A DNA stretch of 18,323 nucleotides from a virus (lineage: Duplodnaviria; Heunggongvirae; Uroviricota; Caudoviricetes): IMG/VR virus record IMGVR_UViG_2606217100_000004. One strand, written 5' to 3'. The position numbers and the translations under genes are program-made. Position 1 is the first letter of the stretch, and every line of letters begins with the position of its first letter. The notes under the pieces were generated by a model. The model saw nothing but the letters and a program-made list of their open reading frames with translations. It searched no databases and was not told the origin of the DNA. This document shows, one piece after another, positions 3,965 through 18,323 of this stretch.

Positions 3965-5800
3965 GTGAAACGACTACAATCATTAAAAGAAGCAAAAACA
4001 AAACCAGACTTGGCTAAGCTATTAGGAATCAAACCTTCAGCGTTAACATACTGCCTATATGTATTAAAACCTGAAAATCAATACACACAGTTTAAGATAC
4101 CAAAAAAAAATGGCGGCGAACGGATAATAAGTGCACCTAACGGAATATTAAAGACGATACAGTCATCCTTATCAGGACTGCTTCTAGATTGCTTAGACGA
4201 AATAGTTTGCATTAAGTTTCCAGACTCAGAGTTAGCAAGGCAGAAAGCAAAAAACTCAAAAATATTAAAGTTAAAATGTTCCAACTCAGAAATCAAACAA
4301 CCCTCACTGTCTCATGGATTTGAAAGAAAGCGTTCAATTATTACAAATGCAATGATGCATTTGGGGAAAAAATATGTTTTTAATATAGACTTGGATAATT
4401 TTTTCGGCAGTTTTAACTTTGGTAGAGTCCGAGGTTTTTTCATAAAAAATAGAAACTTTGCACTCGATCCGGAAATCGCAACTGTAATTGCTAAAATTGC
4501 GTGCTACAACAATGAACTACCCCAAGGCAGCCCATGCTCCCCAGTAATCACTAATCTAATCATTCACTCGTTAGACATTAAACTGGCAGCGATTGCATCA
4601 AGAAACTCATCCACTTTTACAAGATATGCTGATGATATTACATTCTCTACGAGGAAGGGGGCGTTTCCTTCTGCTATAGCAAAAAATCAAAATGGTAAAT
4701 ATATCGTTAGTAAGAAAATTAGGGGCGAGATAACTCGCTCAGGTTTTATAATTAATGATGGGAAGACAAGAAATCAGTATAAAGACTCGAGGCAAGATGT
4801 AACAGGCTTAGTGGTTAATAAAAAGCCAAACACGAAAAAAGAATATTGGAGGCTTGTGCGTGCGCAATGTGACCATTTATTTAAACATGGTGAGTTCTTA
4901 GAGGTGATTGACGGCAAGGAAATAAAGGGGAATGTTAATAGCCTTGCAGGCAAACTTAACTTCATAGACCAAGTTGACCACTATAATAGATTGCGTCAAG
5001 GCGAAAAATTAAATCCAAAATATCACTTAAAAAAAGATGCCAATAAAAATGGCCATGCCAAAAAAAGGCGTTACTTGCATAGTTCTAGAGAAAAAACGTT
5101 TAGTGAGTTTCTCTTCTATCGTTTATTTTATGGCAATGAATTACCAACAATTCTTACGGAAGGTAAAACTGACAATATTTATCTGAAGGCAGCAATACAT
5201 AAGTTAGCCTCATCATTCCCTAATTTGGCGGTAGCTGAAAGTCCAGGGCTCTCTTATAAGCCACGGACTAAATTTGTTAACTACAATGAGCGGACAAAAT
5301 ATTTACTTGAACTTTATGGTGGCGCTGATTATTTAAAGGATTTTGTTATTCATTATAAACAACACTTTAATCGTTATAAGGCTCCCAAACCATCTAATCC
5401 AGTAATTATACTTGTTGATAATGATAGCGGACCAAAAGATCTGATTAATTACGTTAGTAAAGTTGATAATATTGGTATTTTCCCCACAGGTGTTCCAGAT
5501 ATCCGCGCCTCTGAGTTTGTACATATTTTTTGTAATCTTTATTTAGTGCTTACCCCTCAAGTTAAGGGATATACAGGAACTGATATAGAGCATTTTTTTA
5601 AAGATGCAGATCGACTTAGACCACATAAAGGTAAGTTTTTCAATACAGTCTCTAAGCGTGATCATGATAATGATTTGAGCAAGGAATCTTTCGCAACTCA
5701 TATTGTTCATGCCCACAAGCATGAAATTGATTTTAGTGGATTTACAAGCCTGTTAGAACGGTTAGTAAAAGTCATAAATCACTTTGACACTGTTAAGTAA
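3965..5800 (+). CDS. Retron-type reverse transcriptase fused to a C-terminal TOPRIM-like domain (Retron-Eco2/Ec67-like)
   Basis: 611-aa ORF with a GTG start. RT motifs appear in order: NAMMH (NAxxH), NIDLDNFF, LPQGSPCSP, YADD (nt 4625-4636), VTGLVVN (VTG). The C-terminal part has TEGKTD (E codon 5159-5161) and VDNDSG (DxD), the TOPRIM E...DxD signature. The gene is strongly AT-rich compared with its flanks. Confidence 0.85.
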   Translation: MKRLQSLKEAKTKPDLAKLLGIKPSALTYCLYVLKPENQYTQFKIPKKNGGERIISAPNGILKTIQSSLSGLLLDCLDEIVCIKFPDSELARQKAKNSKILKLKCSNSEIKQPSLSHGFERKRSIITNAMMHLGKKYVFNIDLDNFFGSFNFGRVRGFFIKNRNFALDPEIATVIAKIACYNNELPQGSPCSPVITNLIIHSLDIKLAAIASRNSSTFTRYADDITFSTRKGAFPSAIAKNQNGKYIVSKKIRGEITRSGFIINDGKTRNQYKDSRQDVTGLVVNKKPNTKKEYWRLVRAQCDHLFKHGEFLEVIDGKEIKGNVNSLAGKLNFIDQVDHYNRLRQGEKLNPKYHLKKDANKNGHAKKRRYLHSSREKTFSEFLFYRLFYGNELPTILTEGKTDNIYLKAAIHKLASSFPNLAVAESPGLSYKPRTKFVNYNERTKYLLELYGGADYLKDFVIHYKQHFNRYKAPKPSNPVIILVDNDSGPKDLINYVSKVDNIGIFPTGVPDIRASEFVHIFCNLYLVLTPQVKGYTGTDIEHFFKDADRLRPHKGKFFNTVSKRDHDNDLSKESFATHIVHAHKHEIDFSGFTSLLERLVKVINHFDTVK

Positions 5801-8394: not shown

Positions 8395-9141
8395 ATGAAC
8401 CTTGAAGCCTTACCAAAATATTACTCCCCAAAATCTCCAAAATTGAGCGATGACGCTCCAGCGACAGGCACCGGTTGTTTAACAATTACGGATGTAATGG
8501 CAGCGCAGGGGATGGTGCAGTCGAAAGCACCACTTGGGTTGGCCTTATTTCTGGCAAAAGTTGGTGTTCAGGACGCTCAGTTTGCGATTGAAGGCCTGCT
8601 AAATTACGCGATGGCACTGGATAACCCGACATTGAACAAATTGAGTGAAGAAATCCGGTTACAGATTATTCCTTACCTCGTGAATTTTGCCTTTGCTGAT
8701 TACTCCAGGTCTGCGGCAAGTAAGGCTCGCTGTGAGCATTGTTCAGGTACGGGATTTTATAATGTATTGCGCGAAGTGGTGAAACACTACAGACGCGGGG
8801 AATCTGTAATCAAGGAAGAATGGGTGAAGGAACTATGTCAGCATTGCCATGGTAAGGGCGAAGTCAGCACAGCGTGCAGAGGGTGTAAGGGTAAAGGGAT
8901 TGTTCTGGATGAAAAAAGAACCCGGTTTCATGGCGTACCGGTATATAAGATTTGTGGGCGTTGTAATGGAAACCGGTTTAGTCGTTTACCGACCACGCTG
9001 GCACGACGTCATGTCCAGAAGCTGGTACCAGACCTGACCGATTATCAGTGGTATAGCCTGGTTTTTGGCCTGCTGACGTATCTGACAAATCTTTATTTCA
9101 AGATTAAAGAAGACAGGCGTAAGGCTGCGAGAGGAGAGTAA
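8395..9141 (+). CDS. quuQ: Late-gene antiterminator Q-like protein
   Basis: ATG at 8395 with a GGAGA SD. Cys-rich zinc-binding region (CEHCSGTGF...CQHCHGKGE...CRGCKGKG...CGRCNG), positioned immediately upstream of lysis genes. Confidence 0.7.
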
Positions 9142-13320: not shown

Positions 13321-13542
13321 GGTCCTCCCGGTGGGGGCCCCTGCCACGGGGCGGGAGCGTCGCGGAAAAAGGCTAGTTTTTGCATTTCCATGGCGGCGGC
13401 AGCATGTTTGGTAATTTATTGATAATTAAAAGTTATTTCTCTTTTTACCTGTACAATATTTTTTTCTCCCTGTCATTAGACCAGTTTACAATTAATTGAA
13501 ATATATAAATAAACATGATTTTCACCTGCCAGATGGAGTTGC

Positions 13543-14221
13543 TTATGTCAAATGTGAGCGGGATCGGTGATGCTTATTACGACCACCTGCACGTACCCAG
13601 TCTGATTCTGTCGCCGCTCCACCACGAATCTGAATTTTCCAGGCCTCAGCCTCCTTAACAGGGTCAATCCACGGCATCACCGGTCCGGAATACACCGCGG
13701 TATACAGTGAAGAACGATCAAGATCGCGGGGTAGCCTGATAACACCGGATGCCACAGCCTGTTTCAGCCAGGCACGATACATCGGGCGGGTGACGGCACC
13801 AATAAACCAGTCCTGCAGGATCAGGTAGCCATCAGTGGATTCAACCAGCTCCTGACGCTGGGCGCTGTAAGTGCCGTTATAGTTGCGTGCCGTACTGGAA
13901 AAACTCAGACGACTGCCCGCCGCCACGGCACGCAACTGACCATTACGAAAAGTTTCAAGGTTAGGATTGGGACGATCCGACTTCACCATTCCGATTTCTT
14001 CGCCGGGTTTCAGATCGTCGTAAATAATGCCTGGCTGAATGGTAAGCTCGCGTTCATTCTCCTTGCTGCCATTACCATCCGGTTCATAGCTCTGCCCGTC
14101 GCCTTTCCGGATGTACATCCCCAGAGCAGCGGCGATCCTTGCTGCAGTCAGCTCAGAATCTTCATACTCTTTCAGGGCACTGAGGCGGATCAGCACACCG
14201 GACAACAAAGACGTCCCGCGC
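13543..14221 (-). pseudogene. Lambda-family portal protein (gpB-like) internal/C-terminal fragment
   Basis: The minus-strand frame (…RAVAAGSRLSFSSTARNYNGTYS…WLKQAVASGVIRLP…PWIDPVKEAEAW…) resembles the C-terminal part of lambda gpB as I recall it. The first 38 codons of the track ORF are an out-of-frame read of the V fragment. Confidence 0.45.
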
Positions 14222-14908
14222 ATCTGGTGCAAGGGCGATGCGTTTGCGAACCCTTTATCGGACACTGACTGGCTGCGTCTTGCGATGGTGAAGGATCTGC
14301 AACCTGGCGAAATGACCGCTGATGCAGAAGATGACACTTATCTCGATGATGAAGATGCAGACTGGAAAACGACAACCCAGGGGCAGAAATCCGTCGGTGA
14401 TACTTCGGCGACGCTGGCCTGGCGTCCGGGTGACAGCGGGCAGAAAAAACTGGTTCAGTTGTTCGACTCCGGTGAAGTCTGCGCGTTTCGTATCAAATAT
14501 CCCAACGGCACTGTTGATGTTTTCCGTGGCTGGCTGAGCTCACTGGGTAAAACCATTGCCTCAAAAGACGTGATGACCCGCACAGTGAAAATCAGCGGTG
14601 TGGGGCGTCCGTATCTGGCAGAGGAAGGCACTGAAACAGTGAGCGTTACCGGGCTGACGGTGGCACCGGCATCTGCCAGTGTAAAAGTGGGAGCAACCAC
14701 CACGCTGACCTTTACAGTAAAACCTGACGGAGCCAGTGACAAAGCGATCAGTGTGCATTCGACAGATCCACAGACTGCCACGGTGACCCTGAACGGGCTT
14801 GTGGCCACGGTGAAAGGCGTGAAGCAGGGCAGTGTCAGCATTGTGGGCATGACTTCTGACGGCGATTTTGTGGCAGTGGCTGCGGTGGCTGTCAGCGCCG
14901 CAGGTTAA
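14222..14908 (+). pseudogene. Lambda gpV-like major tail protein, N-terminally truncated
   Basis: ANPLSDTDWLRLAMVKDLQPGEMTA…YLDDEDADW…PNGTVDVFRGW…Ig-like C-terminus closely matches lambda V from about residue 20 onward. No V-like start codon or N-terminus is present. Confidence 0.75.
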
Positions 14909-14910
14909 CA

Positions 14911-15667
14911 GGACGATACTCATCATTTGCCCCGGTTAGTGCCGCTTCCTCGGCAACGGCGGCAGGCAATTCCGCGAAGGCGGCAAAGACGTCTGAGACA
15001 AACGCCAGGTCTTCTGAAACGGCAGCGGAACAGAGTGCCTCAGCTGCGGCAGGCTCAAAAACAGCGGCTGCGTCGTCTGCCAGTGCAGCGTCAACAAGTG
15101 CCGGGCAGGCCTCAGCCAGTGCTAGCGCCGCCGGAAAATCGGCAGAAAGCGCCGCATCGTCCGCTTCAACAGCCACAACGAAGGCTGGCGAAGCCACTGA
15201 ACAGGCCAGCGCAGCAGCGAGGTCTGCTTCCGCAGCGAAGACATCCGAAACGAACGCGAAAGCGTCGGAAACCAACGCAGAATCCTCAAAAACGGCTGCC
15301 GCATCGTCCGCCAGTTCGGCGGCGTCATCGGCATCATCGGCGTCTGCTTCAAAAGATGAGGCGACCAGACAGGCGTCAGCAGCGAGGGGCAGCGCCACGA
15401 CGGCATCCACGAAGGCGACAGAGGCTGCTGGCAGTGCGGCAGCGGCAGCACAGAGCAAAAGTACGGCAGAATCCGCAGCAACGCGCGCTGAGACAGCGGC
15501 AAAACGGGCAGAGGATATTGCATCCGCCGTGGCGCTTGAGGATGCGAGCACGACGAAAAAGGGGATAGTACAGCTCAGCAGTGCGACTAACAGCACTTCC
15601 GAGTCACTGGCGGCAACGCCAAAAGCCGTTAAGGCCGCGTATGACCTGGCTATACGAGGTGTATAAC
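14911..15667 (+). pseudogene. Side tail fibre (Stf) Ala/Ser-rich segment, no start codon, open from the V stop, ending in a frameshift
   Basis: A frame without ATG reads …KTSETNA…SASAAS…[34 protein letters not shown], then stops at 15665-15667. The tail-fibre sequence continues in another frame. Confidence 0.55.
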
Positions 15668-16510
15668 AACGGATATCCAACAGCGTATGGAAATATCATT
15701 CACCTGAAAGGGATGACAGCCGTTGGCGAAGGTGAGTTACTCATCGGCTGGAGTGGTACAAGCGGTGCTCATGCTCCGGCATTTATTCGTTCACGACGGG
15801 ATACGACCGGCGCAAACTGGTCGCCGTGGGCGCAGCTTTACACCTCGGCTCATCCTCCTGCAGAGTTTTATCCAGTCGGTGCACCAATCCCGTGGCCATC
15901 AGATACCGTTCCGTCTGGTTATGCCCTGATGCAGGGGCAGACTTTTGACAAATCTGCTTACCCGAAACTTGCAGCCGCTTATCCGTCAGGCGTGATCCCT
16001 GATATGCGTGGCTGGACGATTAAGGGCAAGCCCGCCAGTGATCGAGCCGTATTGTCTCAGGAACAGGACGGCATTAAATCACACACCCACAGCGCCAGCG
16101 TATCCAGTACGGATTTGGGGACGAAAACCACATCGTCGTTTGATTACGGCACTAAATCCACGAATAACACTGGTGCGCATACCCATAGTGTTAGCGGTAC
16201 GGCTGCTTCAGCCGGTGCACATACCCATTCGATGACATTTGTTTCAGGTGGTTCCAGTGGTGCTCCGGGAAGTGGATCACCTGATTATTCTAAATACAGT
16301 GTTAACACTTCTTCTGCAGGCGCTCATACGCACTCTGTATCGGGTACTGCTGCAAGCGCAGGTGCACACGCACATACTGTCGGTATTGGTGCTCATACGC
16401 ACTCCGTTGCGATTGGTTCACATGGACATACCATCACCGTTAACGCTGCTGGTAACGCGGAAAACACCGTCAAAAACATCGCATTTAACTATATTGTGAG
16501 GCTTGCATAA
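15581..16510 (+). CDS. stfQ: Side tail fibre C-terminal portion (StfQ-like); true start uncertain
   Basis: Contains PIPWPSD…[10 protein letters not shown]…repeated GAHTHS/GAHAHT…[31 protein letters not shown], a typical lambdoid tail-fibre distal domain. The first roughly 20 codons of the track ORF are probably out-of-frame junk. Confidence 0.65.
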
Positions 16511-17085
16511 TGGCATTCAGAATGAGTGAACAACCACGGACCATAAAAATTTATAATCTGCTGGCCGGAACTAATGAATTTATTGGTGAAGGTGACGCAT
16601 ATATTCCGCCTCATACAGGTCTGCCAGCAAACAGTATCGATATTGCACCGCCAGATATTCCGGCAGGCTTCGTGGCTGTTTTCAACAGTGATGAGGCATC
16701 GTGGCATCTCGTTGAAGATCATCGGGGTAAAACGGTTTATGACGTGGCTTCCGGCGACGCGTTATTTATTTCTGAACTCGGTCCGTTACCGGAAAATGTT
16801 ACCTGGTTATCGCCGGGAGGGGAATATCAGAAGTGGAACGGCACAGCCTGGGTGAAGGATACGGAAGCAGAAAAACTGTTCCGGATCCGGGAGGCGGAAG
16901 AAACAAAAAACAGCCTGATGCAGGTAGCCAGTGAGCATATTGCGCCGCTTCAGGATGCTGCAGATCTGGAAATTGCAACGGAGGAAGAAATCTCGTTGCT
17001 GGAAGCATGGAAAAAGTATCGGGTATTGCTGAACCGTGTTGATACGTCAACTGCACAGGATATTGAATGGCCAGCACTGCCGTAG
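16510..17085 (+). CDS. tfaQ: Tail fibre assembly protein (Tfa)
   Basis: 191 aa; ATG overlaps the stf stop (ATAATGG), and the product resembles Tfa chaperones (…[14 protein letters not shown]…EWPALP). Confidence 0.8.
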
Positions 17086-17182
17086 GGTAAAACATATAAA
17101 TTCTATAATTAGATGTATCTTTCCATTTACGGCAAGGAAGGTGGCTTGGAAGACGTAAAGCATCTCACACCGAGATTATTTT

Positions 17183-17773
17183 TTATATGTCAGGTGTCTG
17201 AAGTTTTGCTTTGGCTCTTAAAATGGTTTGCCGCGAGGTTTTGAATTCCCGGGCAATGGCACTTATACTTACACCTGACTTAATTCGTTCGAATACCACC
17301 TGTTTCTGTTCTTCATTTAACACTGGTGGTCGACCAAAACGTTTCCCTGCGCCCCGGGCTCTTACTATCCCGGAATGAGTGCGTTCAAGTAAAAGGTCTC
17401 GTTCAAATTCAGCGACTGCTGAAATTACTTGCATCATCATTTTTCCTGTTGGACTGGTCAGGTCAATGCCCCCCAATGCTAAGCAATGCACTCTGATACC
17501 TGTTTCGGTCAGTTGTTCCACTGTTTTCCTGATATCCATTGCATTACAACCAAGGCGATCCAGTTTTGTCACAATCAATTGATCACCACATTTCAGGCGA
17601 GCAAGCAACCGGTTAAAACCAGGACGCTCACTGGTTGCTGCTGAGCCGCTAATGTGTTCTTCGATTATTTGCTGAGGTTTGATTTTAAAACCTGCACTTT
17701 CGATTTCCCGGCGTTGATTTTCGGTGGTCTGATCCAGCGTTGATATCCGACAGTAAGCAAAAATTCGAGACAT
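17183..17773 (-). CDS. pinQ: Serine recombinase / DNA invertase (Pin/Gin/Hin family)
   Basis: 196 aa: [15 protein letters not shown] (catalytic Ser motif), resolvase core, and a C-terminal HTH ([17 protein letters not shown]). Confidence 0.9.
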
Positions 17774-18089
17774 AGTGAGACTCTATACGAAATTGGTGTT
17801 CATATCATAATGCATCTCAGAAAATAATTTTGATTATTTTTGTGCATATTTGTATGTACACGTTCGAAAATAAACGAATGCGTATGCAACCCCGTAATTT
17901 TGGTGAGACCCAAAATCGATTTTGTGAAAAATGGCTTTAACTCGGTTTGTTTTTCGAGTTCCGGGCGGACTCAAGGAAGAAGAATAGTGTTGCGTGTTAT
18001 TTTAACCAGATTTCAAGTTGTTTGGTCGTGGAAAAGTGGAGCAAAATGTTGTTAAAGTGGAAAAATGATAAAAAAGTAAGTTTATTATA

Positions 18090-18323
18090 TTACATTTTAC
18101 CATTTAAATTTTGGTTGTCTTTAAGAACTGATATCGCTGTTTGTAATAATTCTTTGTTATCCAGCCATGATTTTTTCTTTATGTTTCCTTCAATGTAATC
18201 AAGCAATGTTCTGGTATTGATAGGTCTTCCCTGTTTTGCTACTTCCACTACAGCATCCCCTAGGATAATTCTTACTTCAGGAAGCTGCGCAGGGAACCAC
18301 TTTAGGGTGTCTTTTGATTTCAT
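18090..18323 (-). CDS. ydfK: YdfK/YnaE-like small prophage protein
   Basis: 77-aa ORF whose start codon lies at the last bases of the window, adjacent to pin as ydfK/ynaE are in Qin/Rac-type prophages. Confidence 0.55.
   Translation of the reverse strand: MKSKDTLKWFPAQLPEVRIILGDAVVEVAKQGRPINTRTLLDYIEGNIKKKSWLDNKELLQTAISVLKDNQNLNGKM

Follow-up and report, generated by a model that had tools for sequence, protein, structure and literature searches.

Hendrix and Duda are said to have reported in 1992 that the stf gene of phage lambda PaPa is split by a frameshift into orf-401 and orf-314. In Mu, P1 and e14, sites of Din invertases are usually found at the start of the variable part of the fibre, which is also where the breakpoint hotspot described below is situated. 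Serine recombinases make 2-bp staggered cuts, and Cin uses quasi-sites which share the central dinucleotide. PinQ of E. coli K-12 is an active serine invertase, which flips the P segment of the cryptic prophage e14, blocking adsorption of phage T2; the pinQ recombinase was recently shown to confer phage defence in K-12 (PMC12529663).

The window analysed here, i.e., the whole stretch of 18,323 nucleotides of IMG/VR record IMGVR_UViG_2606217100_000004, represents a lambdoid prophage of the Qin family of E. coli in an advanced state of decay. It lies between rspAB and ydfJ, carries tfaQ-pinQ-ydfK-ynfT at its right end and has the same gene order as K-12 Qin; the host gene rspA contributes its 5' part at positions 1-766. 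The V-stf'-tfaQ-pinQ-ydfK locus of strain GPEC87-32-644 and positions 14229-18323 agree at 100%, and the left 14.2 kb resembles strain SW071614, from which it differs by two further deletions and the lack of an IS3 copy. The whole window was present as one colinear piece in none of the 5426 complete E. coli genomes of the collection, 4975 of which match a query spanning V, stf, tfaQ and pinQ; the junctions at 766, 9055 and 14238 are peculiar to the window among all loci fetched. The tail fibre locus of this prophage is very probably a non-functional stfQ-type pseudogene (in a Qin-family cryptic lambdoid prophage, rspA to ydfK/ydfJ), which resulted from two deletions. This type of remnant is already known in kind and is annotated as a pseudogene in RefSeq.

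Several features of the surrounding prophage DNA were recorded as well. At 765-766, rspA is cut at about codon 255 and fused to the prophage early region with a TA overlap (CAACATA/GCGGAAC; breakpoints are marked by a slash throughout); in comparison with SW071614, about 7.4 kb is lost at this junction, namely the 3' end of rspA, rspB, int, xis, an exonuclease gene, ydfD, dicB, ydfC, ydfB and ydfA. Because of this deletion the remnant has neither integrase nor attL and is therefore locked in place. Another deletion with a TA overlap (GGTATA/GCCTGG, at 9054-9055; about 1.87 kb in comparison with SW071614) removes the 3' end of ydfT, cspF', cspB, ynfU and the 5' end of essD. In the early region, an ORF of 611 amino acids (3965-5800, + strand) corresponds to an SW071614 gene annotated as "retron Ec67 family RNA-directed DNA polymerase/endonuclease". 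At the right end, two intact genes follow the stf remnant: tfaQ for a tail fibre assembly chaperone (16510..17085, + strand; WP_000885587.1 in the identical locus L001; Caudo_TAP, E 1e-42, at 16510-17082; 186 of 191 residues as in K-12 TfaQ), and pinQ for a serine DNA invertase (17183..17773, - strand; annotated; Pfam Resolvase and HTH_7; 194 of 196 residues as in K-12 PinQ). The activity of PinQ in K-12 offers a reason why this end of Qin is kept. The spacer between the two genes (17086-17182) is almost the same as that between tfaR and pinR in K-12 Rac; its beginning, CCGTAGGGTAAAAC, agrees at 9 of 13 positions, possibly by chance, with a breakpoint site termed S2 (GTCGGGTAACCG; see below).

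The V-type ORF ends with TAA at 14906-14908. The Ala/Ser-rich Stf frame (mod 3 = 1 by position) has no stop between 14860, inside the 3' end of V, and TAA at 15664-15666 (268 codons), and its sole ATG, GTG or TTG is a GTG at 15529, 45 codons ahead of the stop, which is why the mechanical ORF list (at least 50 amino acids) is empty in this frame. The listed ORFs at 14927-15568 (+ strand) and 14892-15680 (- strand) result from reading the GC-rich repeats of the shaft out of frame and are rich in Arg and Pro. The C-terminal tail fibre frame (mod 3 = 2) runs from 15653 to the stop at 16508-16510 and ends with NYIVRLA; the mechanical ORF over this part (15581-16510, + strand) has a GTG start and an internal ATG at 15713. 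A preliminary description of this DNA had proposed a Stf frame without a start that is open back into the 3' end of V, and a C-terminal domain continuing in another frame from about 15650, and both proposals were confirmed; its position for the stop (15665-15667) has to be moved by one base to 15664-15666, with the C-terminal residues as noted there. Exact-protein look-ups of the 309-aa and 265-aa ORFs of the C fragment returned no record, and a scan of 13400-17300 for promoters and terminators yielded nothing above shuffled expectation, and no promoter-like site on the + strand of the remnant.

Both frames were aligned with the intact Stf of E. coli ATCC 8739 (1007 amino acids), a comparison with full-length proteins which had been recommended in the preliminary description. 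The N fragment (14937..15652, + strand; shaft with one Phage_fiber_2 repeat, no start codon) corresponds to residues 259-496, with 232 of 238 identical, and at the DNA level shows 96.5% identity to locus L002 of ATCC 8739 (16001-16716). The C fragment (15653..16510, + strand; Collar and His-rich Phage_fiber repeats) corresponds to residues 723-1007, with 284 of 285 identical, and matches L002 from 17392 at 99.9%; between the two pieces a gap of 677 bp was located. This homology in two frames is far above chance. In Pfam searches the N fragment was assigned to Phage_fiber_2 (PF03406, E 5e-19) and the C fragment (15653-16507) to Collar (PF07484) and Phage_fiber (PF03335). The out-of-frame TAA (15664..15666, + strand) ends the frame of the N fragment four codons past the junction (...AAYDLA/IRGV).

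When measured against lambdoid Stf proteins (in PGAP, "prophage tail fiber N-terminal domain-containing protein"), the locus possesses the Ala/Ser-rich shaft with the Phage_fiber_2 repeat (ending in AAYDLA) and, ahead of a tfa chaperone gene, the C-terminal Collar with GAHTHS-type Phage_fiber repeats. The N-terminal tail-attachment domain (residues 1 to about 120, MAVKISGVLKDG...) and the start are missing, since homology to intact Stf begins only at residue 259 and the frame has no start codon. Furthermore, a single continuous frame of about 1000 codons is replaced by two fragments in different frames with 677 bp absent between them, and the locus is therefore a pseudogene derived from the Stf family rather than a member gene.

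The upstream boundary of the remnant was resolved with strain MSB1_9D, in which the prophage at this locus is essentially intact and has the same V allele as the window. The V gene (major tail tube) is itself incomplete: its 3' part (14229..14908, + strand) begins at V nucleotide 65, is 97.0% identical to the MSB1_9D locus L004 (15144-15823) and contains Phage_TTP_12 (E 2e-63, profile 7-135) and Big_2. The mention of V in the preliminary description thus needs a correction: homology to V starts at window position 14229, and the listed ORF at 14111-14908 (265 amino acids, "V") is a chimera, whose first approximately 40 codons read antisense portal DNA. The truncated V abuts an inverted fragment of a lambda-family portal gene (13576..14238, - strand; 97.7% reverse match to L004 11275-10612; Pfam Phage_portal_2, profile 204-354). 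The junction between them (14229..14238), which was recognized from overlapping BLAST segments and compared with its native flanks, shows about 10 bp of ordinary microhomology and is not of the TA type; it was absent from every other locus fetched. Comparison of the three relatives suggests an older inversion of a terminase-portal block, which would have been followed by three independent deletions, in the window, in GPEC87-32-644 and in SW071614.

From 14229 to 14938 the window is colinear with MSB1_9D through V and 30 nt into the V-G spacer, and from 14937 onward with the stf gene of that strain from nucleotide 774. The spacer piece (14909..14938, + strand) is identical to L004 15824-15853 and stops within the loop of the V terminator hairpin, which natively reads GCCCCGGTTA/TTCGGGGCTTTTTT and has lost its 3' arm and T-tract in the window. 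The V-G spacer and stf nucleotide 774 overlap by the two bases TA (14937..14938): the native left side is ...GGTTA/TTCGG in the hairpin loop, the native right side is ...GCCAGTA/GTGCC (longer, GCGCCAGTA/GTGCCGC), and the product is CCCCGGTTA/GTGCCGC. In comparison with MSB1_9D about 11,084 bp are lost, comprising G, T, H, M, L, K, I, J, lom and Stf residues 1-258; colinearity with this strain thus bears out the earlier statement that G through J and the 5' end of stf are absent. The junction is inherited, being present with 100% identity in one of the 5426 complete E. coli genomes (GPEC87-32-644).

For the internal junction the best intact reference was ATCC 8739. Its stf gene matches the window at 14937-15652 and again from 15651 onward, at the identities given above, and 677 bp (L002 16717-17393) are absent in between. 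Here, too, the overlap is TA (15651..15652), with the product GGCTA/TACGAGG; the native left side is GGCTA/ACGGG (longer, GACCTGGCTA/ACGGGAAA), and the native right side is GAGTTA/TACGAGG (longer, CTTGAGTTA/TACGAGGTG), the latter being a recurrent breakpoint, termed site R. Residues 497-722 are lost, i.e., 225 internal codons plus 2 nt. Since 677 mod 3 equals 2, the frame changes; in comparison with another allele group the gap is 545 bp, which is also 2 mod 3, and the shift of frame is thus independent of the reference allele. Because the references are relatives rather than the ancestor, with the left stf piece showing 96.5% identity to ATCC 8739 and 93.4% to MSB1_9D, the sizes of the deletions are estimates. 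The internal junction is inherited as well: it was found at 100% identity in two complete E. coli genomes, GPEC87-32-644 and SW071614, and in the IMG/VR contig L106, and, since in SW071614 it is preceded by a different upstream junction, it predates the split of these lineages. Both stf pieces occur in the same order in single intact genes (ATCC 8739 and strain 2014C-3011), and the change is therefore a loss of sequence and not an exchange.

Native stf contains a perfect 6-bp inverted repeat, TTATAC-GAGGT-GTATAA, corresponding to window positions 15650-15666, which reads TATAC...GTATA after the deletion; the breakpoint at R coincides with the left base of this repeat, and the out-of-frame TAA at 15664-15666 is located in its right arm.

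These results bear on several other explanations of the two frames. The preliminary description spoke of a frameshift in the tail fibre gene, i.e., of a small indel which resequencing could repair; a frameshift of one base, or an error of sequencing or assembly around 15640-15670, in a 3' half of stf that would otherwise be continuous is scarcely conceivable, since the change of frame alone speaks for it, whereas 677 bp, not 1-2 bp, are absent in comparison with intact alleles, and the junction is the same, base for base, in two independent RefSeq assemblies (GPEC87-32-644 and SW071614) and in contig L106. A collapsed repeat would hardly account for it either, as the two flanks have just TA in common. 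Nor was a frameshift of the lambda PaPa type found, which would show up in colinear DNA as the gain or loss of 1-2 nt or as a slippery site; the gap is 677 or 545 bp, depending on the reference. The preliminary description had also considered a scar of module exchange. In such a case homologous or homeologous recombination would have brought in another C-terminal receptor-binding module out of frame, at a mosaic boundary of the tail fibre. Stf alleles are indeed mosaic, MSB1_9D and Rac have a different central and C-terminal module, and the identities of the left and right pieces to ATCC 8739 are unequal (96.5% versus 99.9%); this explanation would nevertheless appear very unlikely, since both flanks belong to one contiguous Stf allele type and are found in the same order in the intact genes of ATCC 8739 and 2014C-3011, with the 225 codons and 2 nt between them, homology of the flanks is limited to TA, and an exchange of modules could not yield the same right breakpoint joined to nohA, to terminase and to non-coding DNA in other strains. 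As to the known recombination hotspot to which the scar had been ascribed, the right breakpoint is in fact recurrent, but it is neither a boundary of homologous modules nor an invertase crossover site.

It might also be thought that the locus is a working split gene, with the ORF from 15581 (or 15713) as an independent C-terminal fibre gene, or with programmed frameshifting in the manner of orf-401 and orf-314 of lambda PaPa. Annotation pipelines do call analogous remnants coding sequences, e.g., StfQ of K-12 with 320 amino acids, or a 282-aa "phage tail protein" starting at the internal ATG in strain WP2-S18-ESBL-08, and for this reason the C fragment may be translated. Besides, C-fragment remnants beside tfaQ-pinQ are very widespread, as judged from the 4975 of 5426 genomes matching the spanning query, and a chimeric tail fibre fragment of e14 has a host function in K-12 (PMC12529663). 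On the other hand, the shaft frame lacks a start, the +1/-2 shift follows a deletion, no promoter-like site was detected in the remnant, the N-terminal attachment domain of the fibre and all tail genes are gone, and PGAP calls a pseudogene; a functional split gene is thus improbable. The pseudogene reading, which the preliminary description had offered as one of two, is upheld by the PGAP annotation of the identical GPEC87-32-644 locus as "frameshifted; incomplete; missing N-terminus".

The stfQ-type pseudogene very probably originated as follows. A first deletion (the order being presumptive) of about 11.08 kb, from the V terminator loop, 30 nt past the V stop, to stf nucleotide 774, removed the start and the tail-attachment domain. 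A second one, of 677 bp within stf, caused the shaft to run into a stop after four out-of-frame codons, with the receptor-binding C-terminal part left out of frame. Judging from the sequence, no tail fibre could be made without a start, an N-terminal domain and tail genes, and the remnant is presumably not expressed. The DNA would be carried along because decayed prophage DNA lies on one side of it and intact tfaQ-pinQ on the other, and the stf fragments may be mere passengers. Both junctions, with their 2-bp TA overlap of a recurrent class, suggest a mechanism of cutting and rejoining with a preference for certain sequences, which would differ from random slippage. For annotation, the locus should be labelled an stfQ-type pseudogene and not a frameshifted gene to be repaired, and the adjoining V ORF should be labelled truncated. 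The weight of this change is small; the remnant beside pinQ exists in several independently truncated forms.

Site R (TA/TACGAGGTGTATAAC, 15651/15652) is joined elsewhere to other partners at exactly the same TA: to nohA in strain MB57, to terminase at two positions (WP2-S18-ESBL-08 and metagenome contig L125), and to non-coding DNA downstream of a ynfO/ylcI-like gene in IMG/VR contig L060; R has five partners in all. Exact-match scans for the flank of R, a form of sampling which required the sequence of site R, gave 193 loci, 155 of which are native at this position, while 33 have a junction at S2 and three have junctions at R; two have too little upstream sequence to be classified. Site S2 (GGTCGGGTA/ACCGCGCTG, the right side beginning with ACCGCG; also written AAAGGTCGGGTAACCGCGCTG) is a TA located 45 bp upstream of that of R, near 17347 in locus L002 of ATCC 8739, and is absent from the window. 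Its junctions have 17 distinct left partners distributed over the whole late region (an example of a partner site is GCGGTTATCACGG), the commonest being nohA-stfQ of K-12; 18 of 19 flank variants end in TA, and since three of the 19 are variants of the nohA flank, the number of partners is 17. Some ends are used more than once: S2, R and a third site are all partners of nohA-3945, R and the left site of the window itself are both partners of terminase-5516, and the V-G loop site is connected with stf nucleotide 774 in the window and with S2 in contig L071.

Overlaps of TA were also found at the window junctions 766 (rspA/early region) and 9055 and in relatives, one of these junctions joining inverted terminase DNA to stf. 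With a base-exact junction caller, about 33 distinct TA junctions and about 15 of other kinds (about 48 in total) were obtained from approximately 200 related loci. The flanks of TA junctions are biased toward C-G-G-N-TA-N-C-C-G, i.e., they are CGGNTANCCG-like: GG at -3,-2 is present in 13 of 30 sites, versus 10.8% of background TA sites, with a nominal p of 6e-6 for a motif which was chosen after seeing the data, and C at +2 in 16 of 25. Among the 676 TA sites from nohA to the end of stf in ATCC 8739, S2 is the sole one with a 6/6 match to the motif. The products always retain the -1 base of the left partner and the +1 base of the right partner, which fits a 2-bp stagger. The junction between ynaA and lomR of Rac is not of the TA type, and the TA pattern is therefore not universal. 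A search of the literature on stfQ, tfaQ and pinQ, on invertase crossover sites in lambdoid fibres and on TA deletion junctions yielded no description of such a pattern. In K-12 DLP12, a prophage without a pin gene, the aaaD/tfaD junction (L207 5655-5665) joins terminase to tfa with a TAT overlap (CCCTTAT/TCC).

As to the cause of these junctions, an enzyme cutting with a 2-bp stagger at TA in CGGNTANCCG-like sites, e.g., a serine-recombinase-like protein, a TA-targeting transposase-like protein or a nuclease leaving TA overhangs, may tentatively be proposed for both cuts in stf and for most others in this prophage family. It would be consistent with the exact TA overlap in about 33 of about 48 distinct junctions and with the bias in their flanks; with the fact that S2 alone among the 676 TA sites matches the motif fully and has 17 distinct partners; with the reuse of ends with different partners, sites acting as left or right ones, and at least one junction joining inverted DNA; and with the retention of the -1 and +1 bases as predicted for a 2-bp stagger. 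Against this candidate activity, the motif was defined post hoc; the counts for S2 and R may be inflated by selection for stfC-tfaQ-pinQ; the loci were sampled via the sequence of R; about 15 junctions are ordinary; and a TA-containing junction is present in DLP12, which has no pin gene. Selection to keep stfC-tfaQ-pinQ probably sharpens the accumulation at S2 and R, but it cannot account for the base-exact reuse.

The neighbouring invertase PinQ could have recombined S2 or R with quasi-sites, as an active serine recombinase is encoded about 1.5 kb downstream, and the stagger, the quasi-sites and the usual position of Din sites mentioned at the outset would be in keeping with this. We regard it as unlikely, since classic pix sites (TTCTCCCAAACC AA CGTTTATGAAAA) are the known substrates of PinQ, and these have an AA core and do not resemble CGGNTANCCG, and since there is no Din-like site at the junctions and no inverted partner near pinQ, and DLP12 has its TA-containing junction without pin; a crossover site of the Din family (26 bp, with two 12-bp inverted half-sites ...AAACC NN GGTTT... 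and a 2-bp core) was detected neither at 14937 and 15651 nor at S2 and in the tfaQ-pinQ spacer. The pix sites of e14, retrieved from the publication, do not resemble the junction motif, and PinQ as the cause was thus not supported (PMC12529663). Other candidates were considered and rejected. The att core of the prophage integrase, TTATGGATTTC, has only TTAT in common with some of the junction sites, which speaks against action of the integrase at secondary att sites; for a transposon end or an adjacent deletion by an IS, an inverted copy of the S2/R flank (up to 4 mismatches) should be present downstream, and none was found, nor any IS at a TA junction. Extended microhomology is not a general cause, since the lost left sides are unlike the retained right sides, except for an 8-bp case (L154). 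The retained -1 and +1 bases would fit a 2-bp stagger and not the 4-bp stagger expected of gyrase subunit exchange, and EcoP1I-type cleavage from a nearby GGTCT was discarded because of the wrong distance (checked by hand). A hairpin at R could form from the palindrome TTATAC GAGGT GTATAA, but nothing comparable is seen at S2 and at most partner sites.

A wider proposition, which we consider rather doubtful, is that decay of lambdoid prophages in E. coli is driven by an unrecognised sequence-preferring activity, which would cut with a 2-bp stagger at TA in CGGNTANCCG-like sites and rejoin the ends, and not mainly by random slippage; its footprints would include both stf junctions, those at 766 and 9055, and nohA-stfQ of K-12. 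Equally doubtful is the view that this activity produces deletions and at least one inversion-type junction, recurring at the same nucleotides in unrelated strains. If domestication of prophages in E. coli proceeded by such site-preferring cutting and joining at TA, the positions of good sites would partly dictate which parts of a prophage survive (e.g., the C-terminus of stf, tfa and pin), and the enzyme behind it would add a new factor to genome reduction.

Among the closest known systems is the pseudogene ACYVV2_RS11395 of GPEC87-32-644 (NZ_CM142762.1), annotated as a phage tail protein, which contains both junctions within the 100% identical stretch 14229-18323; it differs in its surroundings, since that strain has kept a full-length V and the upstream head genes, while V in the window is truncated and fused to the inverted portal fragment. 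The stfQ/nohA remnant of K-12 Qin (b1547/b1548) is found at the same chromosomal locus, with tfaQ-pinQ-ydfK downstream, and is likewise a C-terminal Stf fragment which arose from a large deletion with a TA-overlap junction. In K-12, however, nohA is joined directly to stf at S2 (GAATATA/ACCGCGCTG), 45 bp upstream of the site R used in the window, V and the Ala/Ser-rich shaft are missing, and the C-terminal repeat module is different, with 255 of 282 residues identical. Lambda PaPa shares with the window a side tail fibre gene in two frames with tfa downstream, and its stf/tfa DNA matches at about 90%, but that phage is viable and its gene is complete except for a one-base deletion, whereas in the window 677 bp and the whole 5' third of the gene are gone from a defective prophage. 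The invertible segments of the Din family (G/Gin of Mu, C/Cin of P1 and P/Pin of e14) resemble the window in that a serine invertase gene is located beside stf-tfa and that the breakpoint is near the start of the variable C-terminal part of the fibre; unlike these segments, the window has no alternative inverted cassette and no 26-bp AAACC-NN-GGTTT site, and its rearrangements are deletions with a TA overlap.
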